Source of the DNA: Burkholderiales bacterium
GTDB taxonomy: Bacteria; Pseudomonadota; Gammaproteobacteria; Burkholderiales; SHXO01
Assembly: GCA_036787045.1 (NCBI GenBank)
Contig: DAIQQA010000007.1
Span: 1,870 to 65,869 of the forward strand
Direction: 5' to 3'
Length of the DNA: 64,000 nucleotides
Position numbers and translations under genes: made by a program. The notes below the pieces were generated by a model, which was given only the letters and a program-made list of their open reading frames with translations, was not told where the DNA came from and made no database searches. Positions 4,604 through 48,373 of this stretch are shown piece by piece. The first letter of the stretch is position 1, and each line of letters opens with the position of its first letter.

Positions 4604-4759
4604 CCTCTCACCACGAAGGCACGAAGACACGAAGAAAGGCGCAGGCAACAGGTTTCCAGGGCGCGGGATGCGGACTCGGAGCGCCTCTAGCCGCTTTGCC
4701 GCTGAACACGATCAACTCATTTCAGGCTTTGCTTTTCTTCGTGCCTTCGTGGTGAGCGG
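4604..4759. repeat. Foldback-like element A (CACGAAG subfamily)
   Basis: Left arm 4604-4639: CCTCTCACC-ACGAAGGC-ACGAAGAC-ACGAAGAAAGG. Unique core of about 90 bp. Right arm 4732-4759 is the reverse complement with 2 units (CTTTTCTTCGTGCCTTCGTGGTGAGCGG). The right arm ends 17 nt past the fhs stop. Confidence 0.85.
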
Positions 4760-4776
4760 TTGGTAGCAGTCGGAGG

Positions 4777-6492
4777 CTAGAAAAGCCCGACGATCCGGCC
4801 GTCGTCAGCGATATCGATGCGCTCCGCCGCGGGCACCTTGGGCAGCCCGGGCATGGTCATGATATCGCCGCAGATCATGACGACGAACTCGGCGCCGGCG
4901 GCGAGCCGCACCTCGCGGACGTTGACGACGTGGCCGGAGGGCGCACCGCGCAATCCAGGGTCGGTGGAGAAGGACGACTGGGTCTTGGCCACGCAGATCG
5001 GGCAGCGCCCGTAGCCCTCGGCTTCCAGCCTGTCGATCTGCGCGCGCACTTTGCTGTCCGCCGCGACCTCGGCCGCACCGTAGATCTTTGTCGCCACGGC
5101 CCGCAGCTTGTCCCAGAGACTGGCCGCGTCCTCGTAGACGAAGTGGAAGTCGGTGGGCGTGCGCTCGATCAGCTCGACCACCGTGCGCGCCAGCGCCTCG
5201 GCACCCTTTCCGCCCTCGGCCCAGTGACGCGCGAGCACGACCGGGGCCTCGTGATGCGCCATCTTGCGCTGGAGCAGCTCGATCTCGGCCGGCGTGTCGT
5301 GGGTGAAGTGATTGATCGACACCACGCAAGGCAGGCCATAGTGGTTGCGCACGTTGTTGACATGCCGCTCCAGATTGGCGATGCCCTGCTTCAGGGCCCC
5401 AAGGTTCTCAGTATTGAGCGTCTTGAGATCGGCGCCGCCGTGGTACTTGAGCGCCCGGATCGTCGCCACGATCACGCACGCGTCCGGTCGCAGCCCGGAC
5501 TTGCGGCACTTGATGTCGACGAACTTCTCCGCGCCGAGGTCCGCGCCGAACCCCGCTTCGGTGACGACGTAGTCGGCCAGCTTCAGCGCGGCCCCGGTGG
5601 CAATCACCGAGTTGCAGCCGTGGGCGATGTTGGCGAACGGACCGCCGTGAATGAAAGCGAGATTGTGCTCGAGGGTCTGCACCAGGTTCGGCTTGAGGGC
5701 GTCCTTGAGCAGCACGGCCATGGCCCCGTCGGCCTTGAGATCGCGCGCACGAACCGGCTTCTGGTCGCGGGTGTACGCGACCACGATGTTGCCCAGCCTC
5801 TGCTTCAGATCCTTCAACGACGTGGCGAGACAGAAGATCGCCATCACCTCCGAGGCGACGACGATGTCGAAGCCGTCCTGGCGCGGGTAGCCGTTGGCCG
5901 TGCCGCCCAGCGAGACCACGATATCGCGCAGCGCACGGTCGTTCATGTCCACTACGCGCTTCCAGGTGATCCTGCGCAGGTCGATCCCCAGCTCGTTGCC
6001 CTGGTGGATGTGGTTGTCCAGCATCGCCGCGAGGAGATTATTGGCCAGTGCTATGGCGCTGAAGTCGCCGGTGAAGTGCAGGTTGATGTCCTCCATCGGC
6101 ACCACCTGGGCGTAGCCGCCGCCGGCCGCGCCGCCCTTCACGCCGAATACCGGGCCCAGACTCGGCTCGCGCAGGCAGATCATCGCCTTCTTGCCGATCC
6201 GGTTGAGCGCATCGCCCAGGCCGACGGTGGTGGTGGTCTTGCCTTCGCCCGCCGGCGTCGGGCTGATGGCGGTCACGAGGACGAGCTTCCCTTGCTTGCG
6301 CCCAGCGAGGGAATCCAGATAGTCGAGGGACACCTTGGCCTTGTAGTGCCCGTAGGGTTCCAGCACTTCGTCGGGAATGCCGAGCCGTTCCTGCGCAAGC
6401 TCTGCAATGCGGCGCAGCTTCGACTGCTGCGCGATTTCGATGTCGGTGAGCAAGGGGGCTCCTGGGGTGGTTGCCTCGGGCGCGGGCGCCAT
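4777..6492 (-). CDS. fhs: Formate--tetrahydrofolate ligase
   Basis: 571 aa with full-length FTHFS pattern (DIEIAQ ..., P-loop [35 protein letters not shown]). Confidence 0.95.
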
Positions 6493-6530
6493 TCTAGCGT
6501 GCTGGACGGCCTGCTACGAAAAGGGCGAAG

Positions 6531-6705
6531 CTCTCACCACGAAGACACGAAGGCACGAAGAAAATCGAAGAGCTCATCTGCCCTGCGCAGATCTGGATCT
6601 GTGGGTTGGACGTACGGCTGAGAAGGAAAGCGCGCGAAGGGCAACGATTGGGGTTCTCCATTACGTCATGTTTTCTTCGTGCCTTCGTGCCTTCGTGGTG
6701 AGAGG
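6531..6705. repeat. Foldback-like element B (CACGAAG subfamily)
   Basis: Left arm 6531-6564: CTCTCACC-ACGAAGAC-ACGAAGGC-ACGAAGAAAA. Right arm 6671-6705: TTTTCTTCGTGCCTTCGTGCCTTCGTGGTGAGAGG. Unique core of about 105 bp. It fills the spacer between the regulator stop (6724) and the fhs start (6492). Confidence 0.9.
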
Positions 6706-6723
6706 TAAGCCGTAGTCGCAGCC

Positions 6724-7872
6724 TCAGCGTCCGCCGCGGTTCGAGACGCGACGTTCCAGAGCACGGCCGCCAGGGCGCGAGACGTTGCCCTCCGTCAGCC
6801 ACGGAAACGCCTGCGTCAGCTCCAGGATCTCGCCGGCGCGGTCGGCGCGATAGCCCGGGAGCGAGCGCGTGAGCTCCTCGAACTCGGGCCCGCGCAGCAG
6901 CCGCAGCAACTCCTGCACGGACGGATAGGCCAGTGTCTCGCGGCCGGTGAGCAGGAGGTAGCGCTCGCTCGCCACCGGCACGAAGTCGAGGTCGAACTGG
7001 CGCGCCGCCGCCTCCACGCCGAAACCGGCATCGGCCATGCCGCTGGCCACGTACGCCGCGACAGCGGCATGCGTGTACTCCTCGTTCGGCCAGCCGTTGA
7101 TCCGCTGCGGATCGAGTCCCTGCTCCTCGAGCATCGTTTCGAGCAGAAGCCTGGTCCCCGAGCCGCGCTGGCGGTTGATGAACCGCACGTCCGGCCGGGC
7201 CAGCGCCGCGATCGAATCGATCTGCTTCGGGTTGTGCGGGCGCACGAAGATCCCCTGCTGCCGGCGCACCAGGAAGATCAGGCACTGGTCCGCGGGCCGA
7301 AGCCAGCTGCGGTATTCGGCCACCGCACGCGCGCCGCGGTCGCCCTCGGGAACATGGAAGCCTGCTATGTCGCAGGCGCCGCGGGCAAGCGACGCGAGCG
7401 AGTCGGCGGCAGAGAGGTACTGCAGATCGAGGCCTATGCGAGTGTGCCGGCGCAGCAGCTCCGGCAGCTGCGCGACCGCATAGCCGTAGCTGGCGTGGAT
7501 GCGCAGCGTCGGGCTGTGCTCGGCGAGCGCGCGGCTCAGCTCGAGGTTGAGCTCCGAGGCGATGTTCTCGAGCTGCGGCAGCAGGCGGGCGCGGGCACGG
7601 GCCTGGGCCCACACCAGCTTTTCCCCCAACGGCGAGAGCGTTGCGCCGCGCCCCTGCCGCAACAGGACCAGCTCGGAGCCGAAGAACTCGGACCAGCGCG
7701 CGATGATGTTCCAGGCGTGCCGGTAAGACATCCCGGCGCGCTGCGCGGCTGTCGTGAGCTTGCCGCTCTCGTGCACGGCATGCAACAGGTCGAACAGACG
7801 ATGGTCGACCTCCTCTCCGGCCTCGTTGCTGAACACCCACGCAGGGCGGATCTCCATGCGCCTCATATGCAC
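6724..7872 (-). CDS. Transcriptional regulator: ModE-like winged HTH N-terminus plus periplasmic-binding-protein-like (oxyanion-type) domain
   Basis: 382 aa. The N-terminus LLHAVHESGKLTTAAQRAGMSYRHAWNIIARWSEFFGSELV..RGGATLSPLG is ModE/LysR-HTH-like. The C-terminal ~250 aa resemble a PBP-type ligand domain. Divergent from fdsG. Confidence 0.7.
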   Translation of the reverse strand: MHMRRMEIRPAWVFSNEAGEEVDHRLFDLLHAVHESGKLTTAAQRAGMSYRHAWNIIARWSEFFGSELVLLRQGRGATLSPLGEKLVWAQARARARLLPQLENIASELNLELSRALAEHSPTLRIHASYGYAVAQLPELLRRHTRIGLDLQYLSAADSLASLARGACDIAGFHVPEGDRGARAVAEYRSWLRPADQCLIFLVRRQQGIFVRPHNPKQIDSIAALARPDVRFINRQRGSGTRLLLETMLEEQGLDPQRINGWPNEEYTHAAVAAYVASGMADAGFGVEAAARQFDLDFVPVASERYLLLTGRETLAYPSVQELLRLLRGPEFEELTRSLPGYRADRAGEILELTQAFPWLTEGNVSRPGGRALERRVSNRGGR

Positions 7873-7941
7873 TCCAATTCATATTGAAGCCGGACAGGCA
7901 TGCTGCTAGCTTGGTAGGTCCTGCCTGATGATACCTGACAT

Positions 7942-10107: not shown

Positions 10108-12957
10108 ATGTACTCCGTCCGAGAAACCGACTACGGCACCCCGGCCCGCCTGTCCGAGCGTCTGGTCACGCTCGAGATCGACGGTGTGGAAGTCAGCGTA
10201 CCCGAGGGCATCTCGGTCATGCGTGCCGCGACGCAAGCCGGCTACAGCATCCCCAAGCTGTGCGCGACCGACATGTTGGAGTCCTTCGGCTCCTGCCGGC
10301 TGTGCCTGGTGGAGATCGAGGGCCGCAAAGGCTATCCGGCTTCCTGCACCACACTGGTGTCCGCAGGCATGCAGGTGCGCACGCAAAGCCCGGCGCTGGC
10401 CAAGCTGCGCCGTAACGTGATGGAGCTGTACATCTCCGATCATCCGCTCGACTGTCTGACATGCCCCGCCAACGGCAACTGCGAGCTGCAGGACATGGCG
10501 GGTGTGGTGGGGCTGCGGGAGGTGCGCTACGGCTACGACGGCGCCAATCATCTGACAGCCGAGAAGGACCAGTCCAACCCGTATTTCACCTTCGATCCCA
10601 CCAAGTGCATCGTCTGCTCGCGCTGCGTGCGTGCCTGCGAAGAGGTGCAGGGCACCTACGCGCTGACCGTGGACGGCCGCGGCTTCGCCTCGATGATCTC
10701 GCCGAGCGCGAAGGAAAGCTTCTTCGACTCCGAATGCGTTTCCTGCGGCGCCTGTGTGCAGGCCTGCCCGACCGCCACGCTTATGGAGAAGTCGATCATC
10801 GACCACGGGCAGCCCGAGCGCAGCGTGGTCACCACCTGCGCCTACTGCGGAGTGGGCTGCTCGTTCCGTGCGGAGATGCAGGGCACCCAGGTCGTGCGCA
10901 TGGTGCCGAACAAGGACGGCAAGGCCAACCACGGCCATTCCTGCGTCAAGGGCCGGTTTGCCTGGGGCTACGCGACCCATCCGGATCGCATCATCAAGCC
11001 GATGATTCGCAGCCGCATTACCGACCCCTGGAAGGAGGTGACCTGGAACGAGGCAATAGCCTACGCCGCCGCGGAGTTCAAGCGCATCCAGGCCAAGCAC
11101 GGCCGCGGAGCCGTCGGCGGCATCACCTCCTCCCGCTGCACCAACGAGGAGACCTACCTGGTGCAGAAGCTGGTGCGCGCGGCCTTCGGCAACAACAACG
11201 TGGACACCTGCGCGCGGGTGTGCCATTCGCCGACCGGCTACGGGCTCAAGCAGACGCTCGGCGAGTCGGCCGGCACGCAAAACTTCGATTCGGTTGAACA
11301 GGCCGATGTCATCATGGTCATCGGCGCGAACCCTACCGAGGGCCACCCGGTGTTCGCCTCGCAGCTGAAGCGCCGGCTGCGTGAAGGCGCGAAGCTCATC
11401 ATCGTGGACCCGCGCACGATCGAGCTGGTGCGGCAGCCCCATGTGCAGGCCAGCCATCATCTGAAGCTTCTGCCCGGCACCAACGTCGCCGTGATCAATG
11501 CGCTGGCGCACGTGGTGGTGACGGAGGGGTTGACGAAGGAAGACTACGTGCGCGAGCGCTGCGATCTGCGCGAGTACGAAAAGTGGAAGTCGTTCATCAG
11601 CCAGCCGCGCAATTCACCCGAGGCCATGGAGCCGATAACCGGCGTACCTGCTGCGGAGGTTCGCGCGGCCGCGCGCCTGTATGCCGGCGCGCACAACGCC
11701 GCCATCTACTACGGTCTGGGTGTAACAGAGCACAGCCAGGGCTCGACGATGGTGATCGGCATCGCCAACCTCGCCATGGCCACCGGCAACCTCGGCCGGT
11801 CAGGCGTAGGCGTCAATCCCCTGCGGGGCCAGAACAACGTGCAAGGCTCCTGCGACATGGGCTCGTTCCCGCATGAGCTGCCCGGCTACCGACACGTCTC
11901 CGACGCTGCGGTGCGCGGGCTGTTCGAGTCGGAATGGCACGTTTCGCTCGATGCCGAGCCCGGGCTGCGCATCCCCAACATGCTCGACGCCGCGCTGGAC
12001 GGCAGTTTCCGCGGCCTGTATGTACAGGGCGAAGACATCGCGCAGTCCGACCCCAACACGCAACATGTGACCGACGCGCTCGGCGCGCTGGAGTGCCTCG
12101 TGGTGCAGGATCTGTTCCTCAACGAGACTGCCAGGTTCGCGCACGTCTTCCTGCCCGGCTCATCGTTCCTGGAGAAGAACGGCACCTTTACGAATGCGGA
12201 GCGGCGCATCTCGCCGGTGCGCAAGGTCATGCCGCCGCTGTCGGGGATGGAGGACTGGGAAGTGACTGCGGCGCTCTCGAACGCACTGGGCTACCCGATG
12301 CACTACGACCACCCGGCGCAGATCATGGACGAGATCGCGCGCCTGACCCCCACTTTCACCGGCGTGAACTACGCGAAGCTCGAGCGCCTGGGCAGCATCC
12401 AATGGCCGTGCAACGACAAGGCGCCGGAAGGCACGCCGGTGATGCACGTCGAACAGTTCGTGCGCGGCAAGGGCAAGTTCATCCTCAGCGAGTACATCCC
12501 CACCGACGAGCGAGCAACGTGGGAGTACCCGCTGCTCATGACTACCGGCCGCGTGCTCAGCCAGTACAACGTCGGTGCCCAGACCCGGCGCACCGAGAAC
12601 AACCGCTGGCATCACGAGGACGTGCTGGAGATCCATCCCCACGACGCCGAGCAGCGCGGCGTCCGCGAGGGCGACTGGGTGGGGGTGCGCAGCCGCGCGG
12701 GCGAGACCGTGCTGCGGGCAACCCTCACCGAACGTGTTCAGCCGGGCGTGGTCTATACGACCTTCCACTTCCCCTGGTCAGGCGCCAACGTCGTGACCAC
12801 CGAGAACTCGGACTGGGCTACCAACTGTCCGGAGTACAAGGTCACGGCCGTCCAGGTCAGCCGGGTGATGCAGCCGTCCGAGTGGCAGAAAGACTATGCG
12901 CGCTTCTCGCAGGTGCAGGACCGGCTGCTCCAGGAGCGCGAGCGCACCCAGGTTTGA
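10108..12957 (+). CDS. fdsA: NAD-dependent formate dehydrogenase alpha subunit (Mo/W-bisPGD)
   Basis: 949 aa, ATG after AGGAGGGA. N-terminal 2Fe-2S/4Fe-4S cysteine clusters (SCRLCLVEI, CIVCSRCVRAC, CVSCGACVQACP, CAYCGVGC). The metal ligand is Cys in SSRCTNEETY, so there is no Sec codon. Confidence 0.95.
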   Translation: MYSVRETDYGTPARLSERLVTLEIDGVEVSVPEGISVMRAATQAGYSIPKLCATDMLESFGSCRLCLVEIEGRKGYPASCTTLVSAGMQVRTQSPALAKLRRNVMELYISDHPLDCLTCPANGNCELQDMAGVVGLREVRYGYDGANHLTAEKDQSNPYFTFDPTKCIVCSRCVRACEEVQGTYALTVDGRGFASMISPSAKESFFDSECVSCGACVQACPTATLMEKSIIDHGQPERSVVTTCAYCGVGCSFRAEMQGTQVVRMVPNKDGKANHGHSCVKGRFAWGYATHPDRIIKPMIRSRITDPWKEVTWNEAIAYAAAEFKRIQAKHGRGAVGGITSSRCTNEETYLVQKLVRAAFGNNNVDTCARVCHSPTGYGLKQTLGESAGTQNFDSVEQADVIMVIGANPTEGHPVFASQLKRRLREGAKLIIVDPRTIELVRQPHVQASHHLKLLPGTNVAVINALAHVVVTEGLTKEDYVRERCDLREYEKWKSFISQPRNSPEAMEPITGVPAAEVRAAARLYAGAHNAAIYYGLGVTEHSQGSTMVIGIANLAMATGNLGRSGVGVNPLRGQNNVQGSCDMGSFPHELPGYRHVSDAAVRGLFESEWHVSLDAEPGLRIPNMLDAALDGSFRGLYVQGEDIAQSDPNTQHVTDALGALECLVVQDLFLNETARFAHVFLPGSSFLEKNGTFTNAERRISPVRKVMPPLSGMEDWEVTAALSNALGYPMHYDHPAQIMDEIARLTPTFTGVNYAKLERLGSIQWPCNDKAPEGTPVMHVEQFVRGKGKFILSEYIPTDERATWEYPLLMTTGRVLSQYNVGAQTRRTENNRWHHEDVLEIHPHDAEQRGVREGDWVGVRSRAGETVLRATLTERVQPGVVYTTFHFPWSGANVVTTENSDWATNCPEYKVTAVQVSRVMQPSEWQKDYARFSQVQDRLLQERERTQV

Positions 12958-13004
12958 AAGGCGGTCACGCCTCGCCCCTCACGTCTCGAACCTCGCGCCT
13001 CGCA

Positions 13005-13232
13005 ATGGACCCCCAGCGCCTGGTCCACATGGCCAACCAGATCGGGGCCTTCTTCAGCGCCGAGCCCGATCGCGCCGTCGCGCTCAACGGGATCGCAGGC
13101 CATCTCAAGCGCTTCTGGGACCCGCGCATGCGCAGCCAGATCCTCGCCTGGGTCGATGAGCATGGCGGCGAGGGCTTGACCGATCTGGTCGCGGAGGCGA
13201 TCCGGAGGCATCGTGACACGCTGGCGACGTAG
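13005..13232 (+). CDS. fdsD: Formate dehydrogenase delta subunit
   Basis: 75 aa (MDPQRLVHMANQIGAFFSAEPDRAVALNGIAGHLKRFWDPRMR), typical of the FdsD family. It is embedded in a longer spurious track ORF (11934-13232). Confidence 0.8.
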   Translation: MDPQRLVHMANQIGAFFSAEPDRAVALNGIAGHLKRFWDPRMRSQILAWVDEHGGEGLTDLVAEAIRRHRDTLAT

Positions 13233-13307
13233 GCCTGGATCTCGCAGCGCTCGTGAGCAAGCTCGATTCGTCACGTGTGAACCCCACACCGCCCCGGCGG
13301 CTGCGCC

Positions 13308-13392
13308 GCCACCCCGCCTCGTGAGAGGCGGGGAGGAGTAAGTTCCTCCCCTCCTGCCCGAGGAGGGGTGGCCCGAAGGGCCGGGGTGGTGG
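13308..13392. repeat. REP-like G/C-tract multi-hairpin element
   Basis: Outer pairing GCCACCCCG ... CGGGGTGGTGG encloses hairpins CCCCGCCTC-GTGA-GAGGCGGGG, CCCCTCCT-GCCCG-AGGAGGGG and TGGCCC-GAA-GGGCCG. Lies between the convergent fdsD and RraA-like genes. Confidence 0.7.
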
Positions 13393-13432
13393 GAGCTTGC
13401 CCGAGGTGGCCGAAGGCGTCGGCGTCAGGCGC

Positions 13433-16216: not shown

Positions 16217-16222
16217 TGCCTA

Positions 16223-16361
16223 CCTCTCTCTTCACCACAGAAGCGCAGAGAACCCCGAAGCGCGGTGACTGAAGTTAGCCGGAGTGGGATCCAGCGTGCA
16301 TCGACTCCCAGCATGGGAACGGCCTCGTTTTCTCTGTGCCTCTGTGCCTCTGTGGTTCGAG
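16223..16361. repeat. Foldback-like element L (ACAGAGG subfamily; left arm degenerate)
   Basis: Right arm 16327-16361: GTTTTCTCTGTGCCTCTGTGCCTCTGTGGTTCGAG. Degenerate left arm 16223-16265: CCTCTCTCTTCACC-ACAGAAGC-GCAGAGAAC-CCCGAAGC. The right arm ends 7 nt past the GS-like stop. Confidence 0.65.
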
Positions 16362-16368
16362 TCTTGCG

Positions 16369-21302: not shown

Positions 21303-21319
21303 CGCCCCCCACCCCCAAA

Positions 21320-21500
21320 CCTCTCACCACGAAGACACGAAGACACGAAGGAAGACAAGAACGGATGAGCAGAAAACACCGCATGCGGCTGGGTTGCGGG
21401 TAGACACGCCGGATGCAATCGCCCACGCGATCCTTGACGCAACCCGCTGACCGACTCCATTCTGTTTTTCTTCGTGTCTTCGTGTCTTCGTGGTGAGCGG
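21320..21500. repeat. Foldback-like element C (CACGAAG subfamily)
   Basis: Left arm 21320-21357: CCTCTCACC-ACGAAGAC-ACGAAGAC-ACGAAGGAAG. Right arm 21465-21500: TTTTTCTTCGTGTCTTCGTGTCTTCGTGGTGAGCGG, with 3 of 3 units matching. Unique core of about 105 bp. Lies between the soxD-like stop and the soxA-like start. Confidence 0.9.
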
Positions 21501-21507
21501 TTGTCGT

Positions 21508-21788: not shown

Positions 21789-22144
21789 CTCAACCCAAAT
21801 GCCCAAAGTCCGCAAAGGGCGCAAAGGAAACGCAGTTCAGTGAAGCCATACGGTCACTGCCGTGCCTGCGAGCAGTACACACCTGGTCACGCATCCCGGC
21901 AGCACGGCACAACAGTGCCCGCCTGAGTGGCTCAGCGGGTCGCTCTGGGGCTGGATCGAGAAGCACCCTTCGTTTGTCTACACCTCACCCCCCGCCTCCG
22001 GCAAGGGAAAGGGCGCCTCGCCTGCCAGGCTTCCGGCTAATGGAAGCGCCGATCGCTTTCCTTTGCGGACCTCTGCACCTCTGCATTGAGATCTTTCTGT
22101 TTTCTCTTTGCGCCCTTTGCGTCCTTTGCGCCTCTGCGTTGAGG
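21789..22144. repeat. Composite foldback-like element D (GCAAAGG/GCAGAGG subfamilies, nested)
   Basis: Left arm 21789-21835: CTCAAC-CCAAATGC-CCAAAGTCC-GCAAAGGGC-GCAAAGGAAAC. Two tandem right arms: 22055-22090 (..CCTTTGCGGACCTCTGCACCTCTGCATTGAG) and 22094-22144 (..CTCTTTGCGCCCTTTGCGTCCTTTGCGCCTCTGCGTTGAGG). Possible degenerate inner left arm / REP-like piece at 21983-22018. Confidence 0.8.
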
Positions 22145-24696: not shown

Positions 24697-24725
24697 TCGA
24701 GTGCCAGTAGCGCAGAAACCCCTAA

Positions 24726-24909
24726 CCTCTCACCACGAAGGCACGAAGACACGAAGGAAAGACACTAATAATAAGAAGAGCGCGTTCCTCGATTAGGAGC
24801 CGCGAGCGCGACACCGATCGTATTGTTCTCCCACGTTTGACTTCCACCGTGTCCTCCTTGGTCTAGCTTTTGTTACTGAGGTTTTCTTCGTGTCTTCGTG
24901 GTGAGAGGT
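24726..24909. repeat. Foldback-like element E (CACGAAG subfamily)
   Basis: Left arm 24726-24761: CCTCTCACC-ACGAAGGC-ACGAAGAC-ACGAAGGAAAG. Right arm 24881-24909: GTTTTCTTCGTGTCTTCGTGGTGAGAGGT (2 units). The inverted repeat extends outward (CCCCTAA.. / ..TAGGGG). The unique core is AT-richer than its surroundings. Confidence 0.9.
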
Positions 24910-24926
24910 AGGGGTAGCTCCTCGCC

Positions 24927-27775: not shown

Positions 27776-27812
27776 GTTTCCCTCGCTCGTCTACTACTGC
27801 TACTTCCAGAAG

Positions 27813-28004
27813 CGCTCAACGCCAAGGACGCCAAGGAAAGCAAGATCATTTCCGTGTACGACCTGCCGCGCTCCCTCGCGTTGCGAATGGTGCTGCGGCC
27901 CCCTGCGACGTGCTCCGGGGTTGCGCGCCGCGCCGAGGCTGCCCCTTGCCTCTCCATTGAGCTTTGCTTTCCTTGGCGTCCTTGGCGTCCTTGGCGTTGA
28001 GCGG
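27813..28004. repeat. Foldback-like element F (GCCAAGG subfamily)
   Basis: Left arm 27813-27845: GCTCAAC-GCCAAGGAC-GCCAAGGAAAGCAAG. Right arm 27962-28004: CTTTGCTTTCCTTGGCGTCCTTGGCGTCCTTGGCGTTGAGCGG (3 units). Unique core of about 115 bp. Confidence 0.9.
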
Positions 28005-28023
28005 TAAAGCTCTGCGCCTTGGT

Positions 28024-30783: not shown

Positions 30784-30797
30784 TTCTCGACACCAGA

Positions 30798-30998
30798 CCT
30801 CAACGCAAAGACGCGAAGGACGCAAAGGGCGCAAGTAAGATCCCTTGCGACTGCCCGCCTGCGGATAGCACAAGGCCGGTCCATACCCCGAATTGCTTTG
30901 TCAGGCAAACGGAGGTCACCGGATCAAGTGGTTAGACTCGACCGACACGAAATCCTTGTTCCGTTTTTCTTTGCGTTCTTTGCGCCTTTGCGTTGAGG
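30798..30998. repeat. Foldback-like element G (GCAAAGG subfamily)
   Basis: Left arm 30798-30835: CCTCAAC-GCAAAGAC-GCGAAGGAC-GCAAAGGGC-GCAAG. Right arm 30964-30998: TTTTTCTTTGCGTTCTTTGCGCCTTTGCGTTGAGG. Unique core of about 128 bp. Starts 14 nt after the gshA stop and ends 13 nt before the gshB ATG. Confidence 0.9.
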
Positions 30999-31011
30999 TT
31001 TTGCCTGCATC

Positions 31012-31956: not shown

Positions 31957-31977
31957 TACTTCAACCCATTGATTCCA

Positions 31978-32259
31978 CCTCTCACCACGAAGGCACGAAG
32001 ACACGAAGAAAACCGAAAGGAGGAAGACAGGTGCGCCTTGCCGATGTTCCACGTCTGCCAGGCGATGTTTCGTAGCTACCGTGTCGCTGTATAGCTGCCC
32101 CCAAAGGCAGGAACGCAAAGGACGCAAAGAACAACGACGTAGCGGATCCCGCCCGCTGACAGACAGCTGGGGTCAAACCGGCACCTTGCCAGTGGAATGA
32201 GCTCCGATTTGCTTCGCGGATTCTCCTTCGCGTACCTTGGCGTCCTTCGCGCTGAAGGG
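31978..32259. repeat. Composite/chimeric foldback-like element H
   Basis: Left arm H1 31978-32012: CCTCTCACC-ACGAAGGC-ACGAAGAC-ACGAAGAAAACC. Capless inner left arm 32098-32137: ..GGAAC-GCAAAGGAC-GCAAAGAAC... Right arm 32208-32259 belongs to a different subfamily; its reverse complement is CCCTTCAGC-GCGAAGGAC-GCCAAGGTAC-GCGAAGGAGAA.. Confidence 0.75.
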
Positions 32260-32758: not shown

Positions 32759-33008
32759 GATCATCAACAAGCTCGGCCTGCACGCGCGCGCGTCGGCCAA
32801 GCTTACCCAGCTCGCCGGCCAGCATCAGTGCGAGGTATGGCTGTCGCGCAACGGTCGGCGGGTCAACGCCAAGAGCATAATGGGCGTGATGATGCTCGCC
32901 GCCGCAAAGGGTTCCAGGGTCATTATCGAGACCAGTGGAGCGGACGAAGGAGCGGCGATGAACGCCATCGTACAGTTGATTGCGGAGAAGTTCGGAGAAA
33001 GCGAGTGA
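32739..33008 (+). CDS. ptsH: Phosphocarrier protein HPr
   Basis: 89 aa. The active-site context INKLGLHARASAKL contains His15. Overlaps the EIIA gene by 20 nt. Confidence 0.9.
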   Translation: MQQREVEIINKLGLHARASAKLTQLAGQHQCEVWLSRNGRRVNAKSIMGVMMLAAAKGSRVIIETSGADEGAAMNAIVQLIAEKFGESE

Positions 33009-33118
33009 GCGAGTGAGGCGTGAGGCGTACGGTGCAGTCCCATGGAGTGCCGTGACCCGAAGCTGAACCCTCGCCCTTCTCGGCCCACGCCTCACGCCTA
33101 ACGCCTCACGCCTCACGC
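33003..33118. repeat. Foldback-like element I (GTGAGGC subfamily)
   Basis: Left arm 33003-33028: GAGTGAGC-GAGTGAGGC-GTGAGGC-GT, which overlaps the ptsH stop codon (33006-33008). Right arm 33086-33118: CACGCCTCACGCCTAACGCCTCACGCCTCACGC, ending 2 nt before the ptsI ATG. Confidence 0.85.
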
Positions 33119-33120
33119 AC

Positions 33121-34845
33121 ATGTCCTTCACCATCCACGGCATCGGCGTCTCCGGCGGCATCGCCATCGGCCGCGCGCACCTGCTGACCAACACCCGGTT
33201 GGAGGTCACGCACTACGACCTCGCCGAGAGCGAGGTGCATGCGGAGATGGACCGCTTCGACAGCGCGATCGCGACGGCGCGCAGCGAGCTGGCCGCGCTG
33301 GTGGAGCATATCCCGGAGAATGCCCCGCCGGAGTTCGAAGCGTTCCTCAACCTGCACCACATGATCCTGGGGGACAGCACCCTGTCCGAGGCTCCCAAGG
33401 AGATCATCGCGAAGCAGCGCTCCAACGCCGAATGGGCGCTCACGCAGCAGGCCGAGGCGCTGCTCAGCCAGTTCGACCGTATGGAGGACGCCTACCTGCG
33501 CGAGCGCAAGGCCGATGTCGTGCAGGTCGTCGAGCGCGTGCTCAAGGCACTTACCGGGCAGCCGCGCACCATTCCCGCGCCACGCCACCCCGAGGAAGAC
33601 AGCATCCTGGTCGCACACGATCTGTCGCCCGCGGATGTGATCCTGTTCAAGCAACACCGTTTCGCCAGCTTCGTCACCGACCTGGGCGGAGCCACATCGC
33701 ACACCGCGATCCTCGCGCGCAGCCTGAACATTCCCTCCATCGTCGCACTCCACCACGCCCGCCAGCTCATCCGGGAGAGCGAGCTGCTGATCGTCGACGG
33801 CAGCAGCGGCGTAGTGATCGTCAACCCGGATGCCAACGTACTGATGGAGTACGAGCTGCGCCGGGAGCAGTGGCAGCTCGAGCGCGAGAAGCTCAAGCGC
33901 CTGAAGACCACCCGTGCCGCCACGCTGGACGGCACCCGGGTCGAGCTGCAGGCCAACATCGAGCTGCCCGAGGACGTCGACCAGGCCAAGGACAACGCGG
34001 CCGCCGGGATCGGCCTGTTCCGCAGCGAGTTCCTGTTCTTGAGCCGCACGGACCTGCCCTCGGAGGACGAGCAGTTCGAAGCCTACCGCAAGGTGGCGGT
34101 GGAGATGGACGGGCTCCCGGTCACCATCCGAACCCTCGACCTGGGCGCCGACAAGCACCTCAATGGAGTCCAGCGCTTCTCGCCCAACCCGGCGCTCGGG
34201 CTGCGCGCCATACGCTTGTGCCTGGCCGAGCCGCAGCTTTTTCATCGCCAGCTACGGGCAATCCTGCGTGCCTCGCACTACGGGAAGATCAAGATCCTGG
34301 TGCCGATGCTCTCTACGGTGCACGAGCTCAACCAGACCCTGCATCTGATCGGCGAAGCCAAGCGCAGCCTGGACGAGGACGGCATCGCCTACGGCAGCGA
34401 GACCCCCGTCGGCGGGATGATCGAGGTTCCCGCAGCGGCACTGTCGCTGGGCGCGTTCGTCAAGAGGCTGGACTTCGTCTCTATCGGCACCAACGACCTG
34501 ATCCAGTACACGCTCGCCATCGATCGCACCGACGACGCGGTCGCGCATCTGTATGACCCGCTGCACCCGGCCGTGCTGACCCTGGTGGCGCAGATCATCC
34601 GCGGTGCGCAGAAGGCGGGCAAGCCGGTGGCGGTGTGCGGCGAGATGGCCGGTGACGTCAAGCTTACCCGGGTCCTCCTCGGATTCGGACTGCGGCAGTT
34701 CTCGATGCACCCCGCGCATCTGCTGAGCATCAAGCAACAGGTGCTGCGCTCCGACCTGGAGGAAGTTACCCAGCTCGCCAACAGGATGCTGAAGACCGAG
34801 GAGCCGGACAAGCTGCAGGGCCTGCTGGAGAAGATGAATGCCTGA
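33121..34845 (+). CDS. ptsI: Phosphoenolpyruvate--protein phosphotransferase (Enzyme I)
   Basis: 574 aa. Pattern GIGVSGGIAIGRAHLL, phospho-His GGATSHTAILARSL, and a PEP-utilising C-terminal domain (GTNDLIQYTLAIDR, CGEMAGD). Confidence 0.95.
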   Translation: MSFTIHGIGVSGGIAIGRAHLLTNTRLEVTHYDLAESEVHAEMDRFDSAIATARSELAALVEHIPENAPPEFEAFLNLHHMILGDSTLSEAPKEIIAKQRSNAEWALTQQAEALLSQFDRMEDAYLRERKADVVQVVERVLKALTGQPRTIPAPRHPEEDSILVAHDLSPADVILFKQHRFASFVTDLGGATSHTAILARSLNIPSIVALHHARQLIRESELLIVDGSSGVVIVNPDANVLMEYELRREQWQLEREKLKRLKTTRAATLDGTRVELQANIELPEDVDQAKDNAAAGIGLFRSEFLFLSRTDLPSEDEQFEAYRKVAVEMDGLPVTIRTLDLGADKHLNGVQRFSPNPALGLRAIRLCLAEPQLFHRQLRAILRASHYGKIKILVPMLSTVHELNQTLHLIGEAKRSLDEDGIAYGSETPVGGMIEVPAAALSLGAFVKRLDFVSIGTNDLIQYTLAIDRTDDAVAHLYDPLHPAVLTLVAQIIRGAQKAGKPVAVCGEMAGDVKLTRVLLGFGLRQFSMHPAHLLSIKQQVLRSDLEEVTQLANRMLKTEEPDKLQGLLEKMNA

Positions 34846-34858
34846 AAGCGAGAACGGC

Positions 34859-34983
34859 GGACCTAGGACGTGGGACGTAGGACATCGCGGCGGCGGGCAC
34901 GTGCCGGCGCGCCCGGGCGGACGCCGCCGGCGCGACAGATGAGCGGCGCCGGAGAGATTCTCCACGTCCCACGTCCAAGGTCC
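34859..34983. repeat. Foldback-like element J (GGACGT subfamily), possible ptsI terminator
   Basis: Left arm GGACCTAGGACGTGGGACGTAGGAC (34859-34883). Right arm TCCACGTCCCACGTCCAAGGTCC (34961-34983). About 22 of 24 nt are complementary. The GC-rich palindromic core is followed by TCGGTTTTCCC. Confidence 0.8.
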
Positions 34984-35350
34984 TCGGTTTTCCCATGCTG
35001 CGTGAGACCGGGAGAAGGCTGCGAAGTACGTTTTCCGCGCACACAGGAGCCGCTTCTGACAGCATGATGCAAAATGCGAGATCTCACTCCGACCATGCCG
35101 CTGAACCAATGCATGCGAACGCTCAATCAAGGAGTTGCTGCGCGGGTGCGCGCCGGAGCGTGGAGGAGGGGCCCCGCTTGCGGGGATCCGACCGCGGAGG
35201 CGCGCATAGAGACGCGGTGATAACGGCCCGCTCGATCCGCTGCGGGGTCGCATCCACCGGCCAAGGCCGGCGGAACCTGCTCCGCCCTCCACGGATCCCA
35301 CCAGAAAGCCCGGAGGCGCGCCGCGAAGCCACTCTTGCAGCAGCCCGCTA

Positions 35351-42261: not shown

Positions 42262-42307
42262 GTTTGCTTTGCGTTCCTCTGCGTCTCTGCGCCTCTGCGG
42301 TTACAGG
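42262..42307. repeat. Lone foldback-type arm (GCAGAGG subfamily)
   Basis: GTTTGCTTTGCGTTCCTCTGCGTCTCTGCGCCTCTGCGGTTACAGG. The reverse complement is CCTGTAACC-GCAGAGGC-GCAGAGAC-GCAGAGGAAC-GCAAAGCAAAC. No partner arm seen in the preceding ~700 bp. Confidence 0.7.
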
Positions 42308-44369: not shown

Positions 44370-44470
44370 GGGTTCCTCCGGGATGGGTTGACGGGGCGCC
44401 TCCCCGTGAGCGGGCGCTTATTCTACAGACAGTTTCGTGGCCCGTGCCACCCCGGACGGGAGCGGCAGGT

Positions 44471-46525
<2,055 letters not shown>

Positions 46526-46634
46526 CGTTCCCCGTCGGGTTGGTCGTGTATGACGCGATTGTGCCTGAAGCCGGCTGCCCGCTCAAAGCCGGGCCGATGG
46601 GCCAACCGGCGCTTCGTCCGGTTGGAGCTGCCAG

Positions 46635-46961
46635 CTAGCGGATGACTTCGTCCACGGTACCTCCGCTCTTGCAGGTCATCGGCAACGCGACGAGACCAGG
46701 GCGCGCCTCCAGGGCCGGTTGGGGCGACAGGCTGAGCAACCGCGGCTCGCCGTCGGCGATCGCCCGCAGGGCCTCGCGCAGCAGCGTCGATCGGGTGCAA
46801 CCCCCACCAATCCAGCCGTGCACGTCACCGGATGCGGTCACCAGCGCAGTATCGCCGACGTGCGCCGAACTGGGTGGCTCCCTTCTGACTACGGTAGCCA
46901 GGGCGAACCCTTCCCCGCGCGCCGCAAGCCCGGAGGCGAGCTCCAGCAATTCAGGCCGCAT
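46635..46961 (-). CDS. XdhC/CoxI-family N-terminal-domain protein (short)
   Basis: 108 aa from the ATG at 46961. GEGFALATVVRREPPSSAHVGDTALVTASGDVHGWIGGGC is typical of the XdhC_CoxI N-terminal domain. No C-terminal Rossmann part. Confidence 0.65.
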   Translation of the reverse strand: MRPELLELASGLAARGEGFALATVVRREPPSSAHVGDTALVTASGDVHGWIGGGCTRSTLLREALRAIADGEPRLLSLSPQPALEARPGLVALPMTCKSGGTVDEVIR

Positions 46962-47269
46962 CGCCAGCTCCCAACCTGGATAACTCACGAGGGACTCGGG
47001 ATGATGGCGAGCCAAGTTCCAAGCCGGATACGAAGGGTGATTCCTCAAACCATCCGTGAGGCTATTCTAAGCGTTCTGCGACGGAATGCAGGACGCAGAC
47101 GGGATGAGAACGGGATAGCGGCCTGGCGCCGGCGACTTGCTGCCGGCCGGTCCGTTTCACGAGAATCGAGCTGATCTGGGCCAAGGTCCATCCTGTCCTT
47201 CGCTCAACCGGCTGCGCATCCCCTAGTCTAGAATGGGTTCTGGAGTTTGATTGGCAACGGGCGGCAACC

Positions 47270-48136
47270 GTGAATAGCAAAGACGATCGAACGCACGAGA
47301 GCACGAGCAACATCGTGCTGCTCGAGCACGTCAATGTCACCGTCCCAGACCAGCGCGTAGCCACGCTGTTCTACGTGTCGGGCCTCGGCTTCACGCGCGA
47401 CCCCTACCTGATGGTCGGCGTGGAGAACATGTGGATCAACATTGGCCGCAGCCAGATGCATCTGCCGACCAGCCGCCCGCAGCGGCTCAGGGGCACGATC
47501 GGCCTGGTAGTTCCGGATCTGTCGTTGCTCAAGGAACGCTTGCGGCGGGTCGCGCCGGATCTGGCTGCAACCGAGTTCGCCTTCGCCGACCACGGCACCT
47601 TCGTCGCCGTGACCTGCCCCTGGGGCAACCGCTTCCGCTGCCACGCACCCGCCGCGGAGTTCGGAAGCGCCGAGCTGGCAATGCCCTACGTCGAGCTCGA
47701 CGTCCCTGCCGGGACCGCGGCCGGGATTGCCCGCTTCTACTCGGCGATCCTGCGTGCGAACACAGAGGTCCTCACGCGGGCGGGGATGCCCGCGGCCTGC
47801 GTATATGCGGGTGAGCATCAGCGCCTGTGGTTCCGGGAGAACGCCGACGCGATTCCGCCCTACGACGGTCATCACGTCCAGATCTACATCGCCGATTTCG
47901 CGGGCCCCTACGGTCTCTTGCTGGAGCGCAAGCTCATCACACGGCAGCCCAATGAGCACGAGTGGCGCTTCCGGGACATCGTCGACCTCGACACCGGCCG
48001 GCTGCTGTTCACCATCGAGCACGAAGTACGCAGCCTCGACAATCCGCTCTACGCGCGGCCGCTGGCCAACCGCAACCCGGCGCAGACCAACGTCGCCTAC
48101 GTGCCGGGGCGGGATGCGTTCTCCGGGAGCTACTGA
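47270..48136 (+). CDS. Hypothetical protein, possibly VOC/glyoxalase-fold
   Basis: 288-aa ORF with genome-typical codon bias. LEHVNVTVPD and the two-module organisation hint at a vicinal-oxygen-chelate fold. Family not confidently recognised. Confidence 0.5.
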   Translation: MNSKDDRTHESTSNIVLLEHVNVTVPDQRVATLFYVSGLGFTRDPYLMVGVENMWINIGRSQMHLPTSRPQRLRGTIGLVVPDLSLLKERLRRVAPDLAATEFAFADHGTFVAVTCPWGNRFRCHAPAAEFGSAELAMPYVELDVPAGTAAGIARFYSAILRANTEVLTRAGMPAACVYAGEHQRLWFRENADAIPPYDGHHVQIYIADFAGPYGLLLERKLITRQPNEHEWRFRDIVDLDTGRLLFTIEHEVRSLDNPLYARPLANRNPAQTNVAYVPGRDAFSGSY

Positions 48137-48142
48137 TAAACG

Positions 48143-48373
48143 CGTCAACCGCGGAGGACGCAGAGGACGCGGAGCAAAGACGATTACCGTCGTGGGCTTG
48201 GCACTCGCAGGAGGACGTCCGCGCGAACCGGTCGCCTCTCCCCCTGGCGGGAGAAGCTAGTACAGCGACACATTGGTTTCGAAACATCGGACGGTAAAGC
48301 CGGCGAGCGCCGGAAGCGCTTTTGGCCCCTCGTTCCGGTTTTCTTCGTGCCTTCGTGTCTTCGTGGTGAGAGG
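48143..48373. repeat. Chimeric foldback-like element K
   Basis: Left arm 48143-48182: CGTCAACC-GCGGAGGAC-GCAGAGGAC-GCGGAGCAAAGACG. Right arm 48338-48373 is CACGAAG type: GTTTTCTTCGTGCCTTCGTGTCTTCGTGGTGAGAGG. The core contains a REP-like hairpin, TCTCCC-CCTGGC-GGGAGA. Confidence 0.8.

Follow-up and report, generated by a model that had tools for sequence, protein, structure and literature searches.

Two-armed hairpin elements behind stop codons in a Burkholderiales genome as possible ORF-less relatives of bacterial hairpin cassettes

Two-armed inverted-repeat elements were found in 12 spacers between 4.6 and 48.4 kb of a 64,000-nucleotide stretch of DNA from an uncultured member of the Burkholderiales (hereafter called the window); they closely follow stop codons, and the genes on either side are co-directional or convergent. 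Alignment with relatives showed that orthologous spacers have gained and lost elements, that copies of one subfamily are scattered over non-orthologous sites, and that elements in place diversify via turnover of their repeat units while the arms are kept complementary. With a probability of about 0.55, the elements are ORF-less members of a bacteria-wide class of hairpin cassettes, kin to the intervening-sequence-like GxxExxY/PF05635 cassettes.

Each element pairs a purine-rich 5' arm, built from 2-4 tandem units of 7-9 nt, with a 3' arm complementary to it, and elements occur on either strand. An arm opens with an outer flank whose last bases are T-N-A-C (here CCTCTCAC or CTCAAC), followed by 2-4 tandem copies of a unit of the general form C-R-C-N-R-A-G-(G)-N and a short A-run; the outer flank, about 20-26 nt beyond the repeat array, belongs to the conserved module. 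Unit types in the window include CACGAAGR, CGCAAAGG and CGCCAAGG. The pattern CACGAAGNCACGAAGNCACGAAG with at most three mismatches gave 8 window matches against 0.00 expected from shuffles, and the remaining unit types were recovered by TRF and an inverted-repeat search. Stems measure 17-45 bp and loops 72-280 nt, and closing stems were predicted with z = -7.0 and -5.3 in two foldings. Genes in the window were called from GC3, public calls on the L120 locus, and Pfam.

The elements are described here with their stop-side/far-side flanks in nt, for which the outermost base pair of the main stem, as predicted, served as the reference point. Element A (4602..4761, minus strand; arms 4602-4640 and 4731-4761, unit CACGAAGR, loop about 108 nt) lies in a convergent spacer 15 nt past the fhs stop (4777-4779; flanks 15/98), near a canonical amtB terminator at about 4545-4575. 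Element B (6513..6722, minus; 52-nt arms 6513-6564 and 6671-6722 with CACGAAGR three times) separates the stop of a LysR-type regulator (6724) from the fhs start (6492; 19/38). Element L (16228..16362, minus; unit CACAGAGG, arms about 16228-16252 and 16330-16361) stands between a GS-like stop (16369) and the start of an HTH/cupin gene (16216), with flanks of 20/17 and the array itself 7 nt from the stop. Element C (21303..21504, minus; arms 21318-21357 and 21463-21502, outer flank to 21303), with three copies of CACGAAGA and a predicted 45-bp stem, runs from the SoxD stop (21508) to a soxA-like ATG (21302; 4/13). Element D (21789..22143, minus; unit CGCAAAGG, arms 21789-21826 and 22106-22143, loop about 279 nt) lies between the stop of an 846-aa gene (22156) and the SoxD start (21762; 34/48), and element E (24705..24926, minus; CACGAAGR, arms 24725-24757 and 24880-24909, outer flanks to 24705 and 24926) between the stop of a GXGXG/FMN gene (24927) and the start of the 846-aa gene (24696; 0/12). 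Element F (27810..28005, minus; unit CGCCAAGG, arms 27819-27843 and 27964-27997) has flanks of 34/42; the outer flank of the arm is 11 nt from the stop in D and 19 nt in F.

On the plus strand, element G (30797..30999; unit CGCAAAGG, arms 30797-30834 and 30962-30999) joins the gshA stop (30783) to the gshB ATG (31012; 11/10). The feature annotated as H is two elements: H1 (31957..32099, plus), a truncated CACGAAG element directly 3' of the gshB stop TAG with its array at 31986-32008 and a decayed 3' arm, and H2 (32105..32256, plus), with a CGCAAAGG 5' arm at 32108-32131 and a CCTTCGCG/CCTTGGCG 3' arm at 32224-32256. The CACGAAG arm of H begins 21 nt past the gshB stop. Element I (33000..33118, plus; unit GAGGCGT/GTGAGGC, arms 33000-33028 and 33086-33118) overlaps the ptsH stop (33006-33008) with its 5' arm and ends 2 nt before the ptsI ATG (33121; 0/2). 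Element J (34850..34992, plus; unit GGACGTR, arms 34850-34883 and 34962-34992) begins 4 nt past the ptsI stop (4/358); a 128-aa ORF, still intact in the relative L175 but decayed in the window, formerly began right at its far side. K combines a lone CGCGGAGG arm with an H1-type copy in reverse, so its arms do not match: K-left (48146..48175, plus) is the lone purine arm CGCGGAGGA/CGCAGAGGA, 11 nt past the stop of the 47270-48136 gene, and K-right (48260..48398, minus) is the reversed CACGAAG element, with its array at 48343-48365 and its terminus ...GCAGTA at 48398 (11/72). Three lone arrays were also mapped. One of pyrimidine type (12965..13005, plus; units CCTCGCN), absent from the first-pass annotation, fills the space from a fdsA-like stop (12955-12957) to the ATG of a small fdsD-like ORF (13006); a second pyrimidine arm (42270..42305, plus; CCTCTGCG three times and TTTGCG) lies upstream of a nitroreductase gene (42383); and a CAGGATT-type array (49084..49120, plus) overlaps the stop codon 49091-49093, as had been noted earlier.

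All 12 lettered elements lie directly downstream of the stop codon of the gene transcribed toward them, and the distances in the first-pass annotation, which had proposed this proximity, were reproduced to within a few nt of definition. With the outer flank included, the true end of A, B, E and H1 comes to within 0-7 nt of the stop; for C, E and B the distance to the next ATG is 0-15 nt. In 10 of 11 cases the flank on the stop side was shorter than the one on the start side (sign test by hand, p ~0.006); uniform placement of the element within its own spacer was not rejected from the stem-based flanks (Fisher's method by hand, p ~0.13). None of about five divergent spacers in the window held an element. 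The further claim that elements fill the spacer to the next gene stands as an observation, but it is mostly a by-product of small intergenic size, since orthologous element-free spacers measure 2-86 nt and the two flanks of an occupied spacer add up to 2-82 nt, in line with the element-free spacers of the window. To this extent the by-product explanation, which the annotation had itself named as a refutation, holds in part.

At spacers that measure 230, 248, 228, 385, 112 and 505 nt in the window, the relative L128 (85% PtsI identity) has no element and lengths of 2, 51, 86, 43, 27 and 21 nt, respectively. Spacer E is occupied by a CACGAAG element in the window and by a CGCAGAGG element in L126, and the gshA-gshB spacer exists in four different states across the window and relatives. 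H2 has orthologues in L126 and L175, and J is common to the window and L175. The H1-type CACGAAG element of about 140 nt was found as four dispersed homologous copies at non-orthologous sites, including a common truncation point: two in the window, downstream of gshB and ahead of the 48440 gene, and two in L175, downstream of gshA and of an aldehyde dehydrogenase gene. The empty site in L126 can be aligned across the point where H1 is inserted. The examined junctions showed no consistent target-site duplication; CTAG adjoins five of eight H1-type junctions, which is not decisive. A Pfam search detected no transposase in the window, and no GxxExxY or PF05635 gene or remnant was found in the window or its relatives. 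The interiors of A, B, C, E and other elements showed similarity neither to one another nor to any compared locus. Such unique interiors in A, B, C and E are unusual for a young mobile family and count against the cassette reading, as do the missing target-site duplication, the missing cargo gene and transposase, and an interior GC of 62%, equal to that of other spacers.

The arm pattern was found at no fewer than 119 loci in most bacterial phyla, and on viral contigs in 32 stretches against 10 and 2 for same-composition controls. [quoted passage not shown] In a protein-selected sample, 75 of 98 GxxExxY genes lay between inverted arms against 0 of 98 after shuffling, and 56 of these 75 had two or more units of the same family; the sample had been seeded with proteins from CACGAAG-flanked genes and is thus not fully independent. 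Cargo genes start a median of 16 nt past the 5' arm and stop a median of 10 nt before the 3' arm. The surroundings of cassettes were (gene end, gene start) in 25 cases and the reverse in one, and 35 of 59 neighboring gene ends lay within 20 nt, both counts being based on crude gene calls at foreign loci. In other genomes, by similarly crude gene calls, ORF-less and gene-carrying versions alike adjoin gene ends more often and more closely than gene starts. A preference of the elements for gene 3' ends is supported; insertion with such a preference was the better founded of the two options offered by the first-pass annotation, given presence and absence in relatives, dispersed copies, and the gene-end bias elsewhere. 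No published link between tandem-repeat arms of this type and GxxExxY genes was found in the literature.

According to the cassette reading, elements would land and persist in gaps of 2-90 nt behind genes, where insertion would break no gene or promoter. Landing in such short gaps would by itself place both element ends next to a stop and a start, and the slightly longer start-side flank would reflect the room that the next gene needs for ribosome binding. In the transcript the stem of 25-45 bp would loop the insert out and bring stop and start together, so that operon expression might survive as fragmented 23S rRNA survives its intervening sequence, and by the same analogy RNase III would be likely to cut the stem. 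Cargo-carrying cassettes, in which the 5' arm stands 0-10 nt upstream of the ATG of the cargo gene, could have left as a legacy both the purine-first polarity and the units that resemble a Shine-Dalgarno sequence (GAAGG, GGAGG, AAGGA).

A different explanation, which we consider unlikely, is that the hairpins grew purely in place by slippage of 7-9 nt units, with template switching copying changes between the arms, and are immobile and functionless. The HPr-ptsI spacer (element I) speaks for it. In six relatives the arrays take off from one shared stop codon and have lineage-specific units with matching 3' arms; those of the window, L175, L176, L126 and L127 open with the gene's own GAGTGA(G), and the L128 spacer holds only a 6-bp hairpin. 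Judged from these alignments, the array looks to have been seeded from the gene's own 3' end, so growth in place fits here as well as insertion. The parallel change of unit number in both arms of F, whose L126 orthologue has one extra unit in each, points the same way, as do the missing target duplication, the missing G-U strand bias, and the unique interiors. Growth in place leaves unexplained, however, the four homologous copies with their common truncation point, the gain of roughly 100-280 nt of loop DNA in spacers that were ancestrally 2-50 nt long, and the recurrence of outer flank and unit family in most phyla, around GxxExxY genes.

Rather less probable is that the elements are host-selected RNA elements (processing or stabilizing hairpins, U-tract-free terminators, or devices for translation coupling) kept for operon benefit. 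The position of the HPr-ptsI element is kept across relatives with 82-94% PtsI identity, the complementarity of its arms is maintained through unit changes, and ptsI lacks a Shine-Dalgarno sequence in every relative examined; its ATG follows the stem by 2 nt, the 5' arm contains the ptsH stop, and predicted stems are very stable. Against this, the same operon junctions are empty or differently occupied in close relatives, lone arms persist, and arms of the same type flank selfish-looking small genes in other phyla. The stems also have no U-tract on their 3' side, no terminator consensus, no Rfam match even at E <= 1, and no sense-strand G-U bias, sense and antisense folding equally well. With close relatives doing without the elements as well, the earlier suggestion of a terminator, attenuator, stabilizer or processing site was not borne out. 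The elements may have some role at the RNA level, and RNase III processing of the stems is plausible by analogy with rRNA intervening sequences.

That the arms are sites for a sequence-specific DNA- or RNA-binding protein (a regulator, a nucleoid protein, or an S1/CsrA-like protein) is improbable. The repeats are dyad-symmetric and near genes, but at least eight unit sequences with periods of 7, 8 and 9 nt stand side by side within 45 kb of one genome, and a single binder cannot read them all. Cyanobacterial STRR units were reportedly described by Vioque in 1997 as extending both strands of the P12 helix in RNase P RNA. Like these STRR heptamers, published TAACTGA tandem arrays, which have been read as binding sites, are intergenic and beside start or stop codons, share their unit among distant phyla, and differ between strains by indels in multiples of 7 nt (MacGregor 2015, PMC4679880). 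The TAACTGA arrays are nearly all single direct arrays, with one inverted pair in 170 sets (PMC4679880), whereas the window elements are inverted arm pairs.

The closest published description is that of the Xanthomonas GGGAATC inverted heptamer repeats. In Xanthomonas and Nostoc, tandem 7-nt intergenic units (GGGAATC or GGGGA(T/C)T) are over-represented between aligned ORFs and under-represented between divergent ones, and Xanthomonas has 70-75 convergent (inverted) pairs per genome, for which G-quadruplex formation was proposed (Rehm et al. 2015, PLoS One, PMC4692102). Polarity and placement match those of the window elements, and the CAGGATT-type array resembles the GGGAATC/GGGGATT units themselves; that report describes no conserved outer flank, no dispersed copies sharing interiors, no orthologous gain or loss, and no GxxExxY or PF05635 link. 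Despite the likeness, it is very improbable that the elements are non-B DNA signals (G-quadruplex or cruciform) modulating transcription or replication. Window units are mostly 8-9 nt, and the main ones (CACGAAG, CGCAAAGG, CGCCAAGG) have no G-runs, which makes a quadruplex impossible and the Xanthomonas reading not transferable. Loops of 72-280 nt, moreover, would disfavor cruciform extrusion.

Integron attC sites are imperfect inverted repeats directly after stop codons, variable in sequence and conserved in structure, that fill the spacer; the window elements share this placement, and direct copies of a whole element stand on both sides of some GxxExxY genes (L190, L197), but attC-like sites with the flanking genes as cassettes are hardly credible, as those genes belong to core operons that are syntenic in relatives whether or not elements are present, and neither an integrase nor RYYYAAC/GTTRRRY cores on the main family were found. 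MITEs (such as the Neisseria Correia elements) and REP/BIME/REPIN sequences are short, non-autonomous, extragenic inverted repeats near gene 3' ends that are co-transcribed and form hairpins in mRNA. The window elements are likewise short, extragenic and near gene 3' ends, but MITE copies share their interior and most window interiors are unique. REP units are single imperfect palindromes of 20-40 nt with a GTAG or CGTC tag (PMC3733652), their arms not built of tandem units as in the window, and no RAYT was detected there by Pfam search.

[quoted passage not shown] The loop varies, with or without a PF05635 ORF, horizontal transfer is suspected, and the insert, being a self-contained stem-loop, leaves the host RNA functional (PMC4990558; bioRxiv 10.1101/2024.02.27.582315). 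These insertions occupy helices 9, 25 and 45 of 23S rRNA and their cleavage has been demonstrated, whereas the window elements lie in mRNA spacers and their cleavage is predicted by analogy. Both share the inverted-repeat stem, the variable loop and the sporadic distribution, and the PF05635 gene at L039 adds to the likeness.

Two-armed elements were found in 12 gene spacers between 4.6 and 48.4 kb of the window, which has a GC content of 65-66% and derives from an uncultured Burkholderiales population. Each consists of a 5' arm, in which a purine-rich unit of 7-9 nt is repeated two to four times in tandem, a loop, and a 3' arm that is the reverse complement of the 5' arm. The main arm type, CCTCTCAC-(CACGAAGR)x3-AAAAC ... 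GTTTTC-(YCTTCGTG)x3-GTGAGAGG, was present in A, B, C, E, the left-hand portion of H and the right-hand portion of K, and the triple-unit CACGAAG pattern had eight matches in the window against 0.00 expected by chance. The remaining elements were built from other units: CGCAAAGG in D, G and H2 (H, behind gshB, is two elements, H1 and H2), CGCCAAGG in F, CACAGAGG in L, GAGGCGT in I, GGACGTR in J and CGCGGAGGA in the left half of K. Lone arms were located at 42270-42305 and 49084-49120. Convergent arms of tandem 6-9 nt units were seen in all lettered elements except H1, which is truncated, and K, in which a lone CGCGGAGG arm is combined with a CACGAAG element in reverse orientation, a make-up that explains why the arms of K do not match each other. 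When all arms were aligned on CACCACGAAG, an outer flank of about 20-26 nt beyond the array proved common to several copies (for example TACTGCGAC..CAC..ACCTCT). Folding predicted closing stems of 17-45 bp and loops of 72-280 nt. The purine arm was 5' in every window element, a polarity that is true on both strands because the paired arms are palindromic. A lone pyrimidine-type tandem array (TCACGCCTCGCCCCTCACGTCTCGAACCTCGCGCCTCGCA), missing from the first-pass annotation, was observed at 12965-13005 between an fdsA-like stop codon and an fdsD-like ATG. It fills a 48-nt spacer (12955-13008) before the small fdsD-like ORF (13006-13232), and neither a purine partner arm nor a Shine-Dalgarno sequence was found at this spacer.

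Gene ends and starts were assigned from GC3-based calls, Pfam, and public calls on a near-identical contig of the same population (L120). Every element lay behind the stop codon of the gene transcribed toward it, and the distances given in the first-pass annotation were reproduced within a few nucleotides. With the outer flank counted, A, B, E and H1 reached to 0-7 nt from the stop, and the next ATG followed at 0 (C), 8 (E) or 15 nt (B). The gene context was tandem for 11 of the 12 elements, convergent for one and divergent for none, and the window's roughly five divergent spacers contained no element. Proximity within a spacer is, however, largely not special. In L128, a relative with 85% PtsI identity, the element-free orthologous spacers measured 2, 51, 86, 43, 27 and 21 nt; co-directional window spacers without elements were mostly 0-110 nt, and the summed flanks of element-bearing spacers were 2-82 nt. 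In host gaps this short, any insert touches both stop and start. Uniform placement within each spacer was not rejected (p about 0.13, Fisher's method, calculated by hand). It had been foreseen that short orthologous spacers lacking elements would reduce the pattern to a by-product of small intergenic size; the spacers of L128 are indeed short, yet an asymmetry toward gene 3' ends is left over, the stop-side flank being the shorter in 10 of 11 cases (p about 0.006, sign test by hand). A downstream gene that requires 10-40 nt for ribosome binding would produce such a difference, and the absence from divergent spacers corresponds to the usual avoidance of promoters. For the window itself the practical message is modest: the stop-codon proximity is real, yet the places in which such inserts can survive account for most of it. 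That the outer flank GGTGAGAGG supplies the following gene with its Shine-Dalgarno sequence was ruled out, since the flank lies 17-38 nt from the ATG. Element J appeared to have 358 nt of free room behind it; in the relative L175, a 128-aa ORF begins directly after J's 3' arm. The window segment at 34993-35350 is a decayed remnant of this ORF, which is intact in L175 (6240-6626) and of which the relative L126 retains only the last ~100 nt.

Comparison with relatives carrying orthologous spacers revealed gain and loss of elements. Spacer E measures 2 nt in L128 and is occupied by a CACGAAG element in the window; in L126 it contains a CGCAGAGG element and a further palindrome. The latter, a second, unrelated long palindrome (CTGATTAGTGACGAAGCTCAGC ... 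GCTGAGGATCGTCACTAATCAAG; L126 1620-1790), adjoins the CGCAGAGG element and encloses CCGGAATCC/GGATTCCGG repeats. The gshA-gshB spacer was found in four states: a full CGCAAAGG element in the window, the 3' arm alone of that element in L126, elements with other units (GTGATCNG, GTGACTG) in L127 and L176, and a CACGAAG element in L175. This last copy, on the gshA side, is homologous over ~140 nt to window H1, which follows gshB instead; the reversed copy in K is a further homologue, and so is one of the halves of a complete two-armed element that follows the L175 aldehyde dehydrogenase gene. The H1-type subfamily thus comprises four dispersed copies sharing termini and interior. A truncation at one common point, GTGTCGCTGTA, is seen in three of them, which indicates that an already truncated derivative went on to be copied. 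L126 has an empty site behind gshB (CCGCTAGCTAGGGCTCTGCAACCCC), and the window sequence to the left and right of the H1 insert aligns with it, CCGCTAG[TACTTC...GCTGTA]TAGCTGCCCCC. The interiors of A, B, C, D, E, F and G matched no compared locus, the H1/K match being the only one found.

The mode of insertion was examined at the H1-type junctions. TAG stands on both sides of H1, the other H1-type copies are not flanked in this way, and no consistent target duplication was seen. CTAG occurs at five of the eight junctions; across the window it is six-fold under-represented, with 32 occurrences against about 203 expected from base composition, and a role as insertion target is suggestive, not established. 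Nine of these 32 CTAGs fall within element-bearing spacers or at their margins; such spacers account for 5% of the window. No transposase was found within the 64 kb. A foreign origin reflected in lower loop GC was ruled out, as the loops have the same 62% as other spacers. In L175 (2150-2175), a 23-nt mini-hairpin (CCTGCCCTGGACTCGATCCAGGG) has been inserted into the array of the copy that follows gshA, between CACGAAG units one and two. Wetland-sediment contigs (L120-L125) were 99.8% identical to the metagenome-assembled genome of this population (GCA_964470675.1) and showed no variation in unit copy number, so the arrays are not hypermutable at population scale.

The arms of an element evolve in concert. 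The spacer between the HPr gene, ptsH, and ptsI holds a two-armed array in the window, L175, L176/L177, L126 and L127, a weaker and less regular one in L129, and only a 6-bp hairpin in L128. All but that of L129 begin at the same GAGTGA stop, and their units are lineage-specific (GAGGCGT, GGAGTGA, GTGAAGNN, GAGGCAC), with a complementary 3' arm every time. Both arms of element F are longer by one unit in L126 than in the window, and where one arm shows a C-to-A change the other shows the matching G-to-T. Sense and antisense strands folded equally well, with 23 and 28 G-U pairs respectively and no bias, so complementarity could be kept by DNA-level correction as well as by RNA selection. Template switching in quasi-palindromes offers a route for such correction. 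The ptsH stop lies inside the 5' arm of element I and the ptsI ATG 2 nt from its 3' arm. No recognisable Shine-Dalgarno sequence for ptsI was found in the window (33086-33123), L126, L127, L128, L129, L175 or L176, that is, whether or not the spacer has an element. This suggests that ptsI translation is obligatorily coupled to that of ptsH; with the stop in the 5' arm, terminating ribosomes would unmask the ptsI start.

The arm family extends well beyond the Burkholderiales. A scan with the exact pattern, covering one genome per species, yielded at least 119 stretches with the CACGAAG arm, the listed matches coming from Verrucomicrobiota, Planctomycetota, Acidobacteriota, Gemmatimonadota, Chloroflexota, Bacteroidota, Actinomycetota, Nitrospirota, Myxococcota, and Alpha-, Beta- and Gammaproteobacteria. 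Most listed matches were 5'-CACGAAG...CTTCGTG-3' hairpins with loops of 7-340 nt, frequently with a T-N-A-C outer flank, and some were nested in elements of other units. Among the matches listed, the purine arm came first in 55 of 62 detected pairs; crude gene calls gave 24 tandem, 10 convergent and 5 divergent contexts, and placed a neighbouring gene end within 18 nt in 19 of 62 cases and a gene start in 6 of 48. Viral contigs contained 32 stretches with the pattern versus 10 and 2 for control units of the same composition (the shuffled unit GACACAG was unfit as a control, being a family member, CACAGAGA, and other units were used). These contigs (L130-L161) include some with inverted CACGAAG pairs (L135, L140, L147, L149), and five CACGAAG stretches were counted in the viral contig IMGVR_UViG_3300044796_000433.

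Some of these hairpins carry genes. [quoted passage not shown] Eighty metagenome loci were then picked by GxxExxY protein similarity alone. In this sample, which is not fully independent because the query proteins came from CACGAAG-flanked genes, an inverted repeat with a score of at least 12 bracketed 75 of 98 evaluable GxxExxY genes and none when flanks were shuffled, and two or more units of the form C[AG]CN[AG]A[AG] were present in 56 of the 75 bracketing arms. The most frequent cassette units (CGCAAAG, CGCCAAG, CGCGAAG, CGCAGAG, CACGAAG and CGCGGAG) are those of the window repertoire, and the window arms share the cassette module of an outer T-N-A-C, tandem C-R-C-N-R-A-G-(G)-N units, an inner A-run and a 5' purine arm. 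The cargo gene starts a median of 16 nt past the 5' arm, often 0-10 nt, and stops a median of 10 nt ahead of the 3' arm. Cassettes stood behind a co-oriented gene end in 25 cases against one in the reverse arrangement, and 35 of 59 neighbouring gene ends were within 20 nt of a cassette arm. Other GxxExxY genes lie between direct copies of a complete element, or between arms that point their outer flanks toward the gene. Direct repeats of the entire two-armed element (~150 nt, ~85% identical) around some genes look like the outcome of integration through recombination inside the element, and several loci have two or more cassettes in a row (L190, L197, L209 and L223 being the loci noted for these arrangements); the 80 loci contain 112 gene segments.

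A structure model of GxxExxY was confident (pLDDT 87) and resembled only generic PD-(D/E)XK folds of the Cas4 and lambda-exonuclease type (E about 1e-3); the structure comparison gave no hint of a junction resolvase, and no solved relative was identified by sequence. At least 8000 close homologs were returned by one search, and PF13366 is listed as of unknown function (PMC3424549). One source gives many of these proteins (P0159, P0162, P0171 and others) the name 'iron complex transport system substrate-binding protein', probably a propagated mis-annotation.

The closest published description is that of the Xanthomonas GGGAATC and Nostoc GGGGATT heptamer repeats, which form 70-75 inverted pairs between aligned ORFs, at most 50 bp behind the stop when on the sense strand and at most 50 bp ahead of the next ORF when on the antisense strand, and were interpreted as G-quadruplex motifs (PMC4692102). 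Their placement, between aligned ORFs, behind a stop and avoiding divergent spacers, and their polarity are the same as in the window, whereas the G-quadruplex feature is not shared, as CACGAAG, CGCAAAGG, CGCCAAGG and CACAGAG contain no stretch of three or more Gs. The 23S rRNA intervening sequences are similar in that terminal inverted repeats form a long stem around a variable loop, with a 28-bp stem and a PF05635 ORF in the loop in Coxiella (PMC4990558). Their loops occur with or without the PF05635 ORF; the loops of elements related to those of the window have PF05635 or PF13366 genes, and the window copies, with predicted stems of 17-45 bp, are ORF-less. The intervening sequences sit in helix 9, 25 or 45 and are excised by RNase III without ligation, whereas the window elements sit in mRNA spacers. 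TAACTGA arrays (PMC4679880) and cyanobacterial STRR are single-array relatives. MITE copies share termini and interior, as do the four H1-type copies, whereas the interiors of A to G are unique within the DNA compared. Integron attC sites (RYYYAAC ... GTTRRRY, with an integrase) were rejected: the main family ends in CCTCTCAC ... GTGAGAGG, no integrase was found in the window, and the flanking genes are syntenic core genes. REP/REPIN sequences (20-40 nt imperfect palindromes with a GTAG/CGTC tag and a RAYT) were likewise rejected, since the arms are not palindromes individually, GTAG occurs only in some outer flanks, and no RAYT was found in the window. A literature search on the arm sequences gave no relevant match, and no published link between such arms and GxxExxY or PF05635 genes was found.

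Two explanations had been offered for the placement, a role in the mRNA (as terminator, attenuator, stabiliser or processing site) or insertion preferring gene 3' ends or terminators. The placement itself is confirmed, and its interpretation is supported in part: insertion with a 3'-end bias by the gain and loss, the dispersal and the closeness to gene ends in other genomes, while a role in the mRNA is a candidate. No promoter or terminator consensus was found in the loops, and intrinsic (Rho-independent) termination was rejected, as no arm has a terminator-like site and the loops are 72-280 nt long. Rfam gave no match at the gathering threshold and none at E <= 1 over 14.7 kb, and no tRNA (by scan) or rRNA was found in the window. 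The most far-reaching reading, to which we assign a probability of roughly one in four, is a single bacteria-wide family of selfish hairpin cassettes. A cassette with a 5' arm of tandem Shine-Dalgarno-like purine units and a complementary 3' arm would insert directly behind the stop codon of a host gene in the same orientation, host ribosomes terminating there would open the stem and expose the ribosome-binding site of the cargo, and the cargo, a GxxExxY PD-(D/E)XK nuclease or a four-helix-bundle protein, would drive spread. This family would have three faces: intervening sequences of 23S rRNA, the inverted GGGAATC repeats of Xanthomonas and the window elements. The reading held to be most likely is narrower. 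Since no remnant of a GxxExxY gene was found in any window loop, the window copies would be ORF-less derivatives descended from GxxExxY cassettes. Purine-first polarity and Shine-Dalgarno-like units may then be a legacy of supplying the cargo gene's ribosome-binding site. Self-folding inserts would persist in the short gaps behind genes because there they would break neither gene nor promoter. In the transcript, the stem would loop the insert out and bring stop and start together, and it would probably be cut by RNase III, by analogy with the Coxiella intervening sequence (PMC4990558).

The connection with intervening sequences and with two large orphan gene families is possibly new and testable, and bears on the origin of the former and the function of GxxExxY/PF13366 and PF05635. 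Inverted arms of tandem C-R-C-N-R-A-G units behind stop codons provide a handle for finding further copies, and for asking whether the cargo nuclease mobilises the elements and whether RNase III or terminating ribosomes act on the stems. In annotation, the elements lengthen operon spacers by 100-400 nt and, because the arrays have no stop codon in any frame, can be mis-called as ORFs. Element C had no match among plasmids by BLAST. A canonical intrinsic terminator (GGGCGCCCTGCGGGGCGCCC then T7) lies at 4545-4575 behind amtB, with element A between it and the fhs stop, so this genome uses ordinary terminators as well. A different GC-rich palindrome (CCCATCCCCACCCC..CCCTCCC / GGGAGGG..GGGGTGGG), without tandem-unit arms, was seen at 62406-62523 and 13300-13400 and may represent a REP-like family of this genome.
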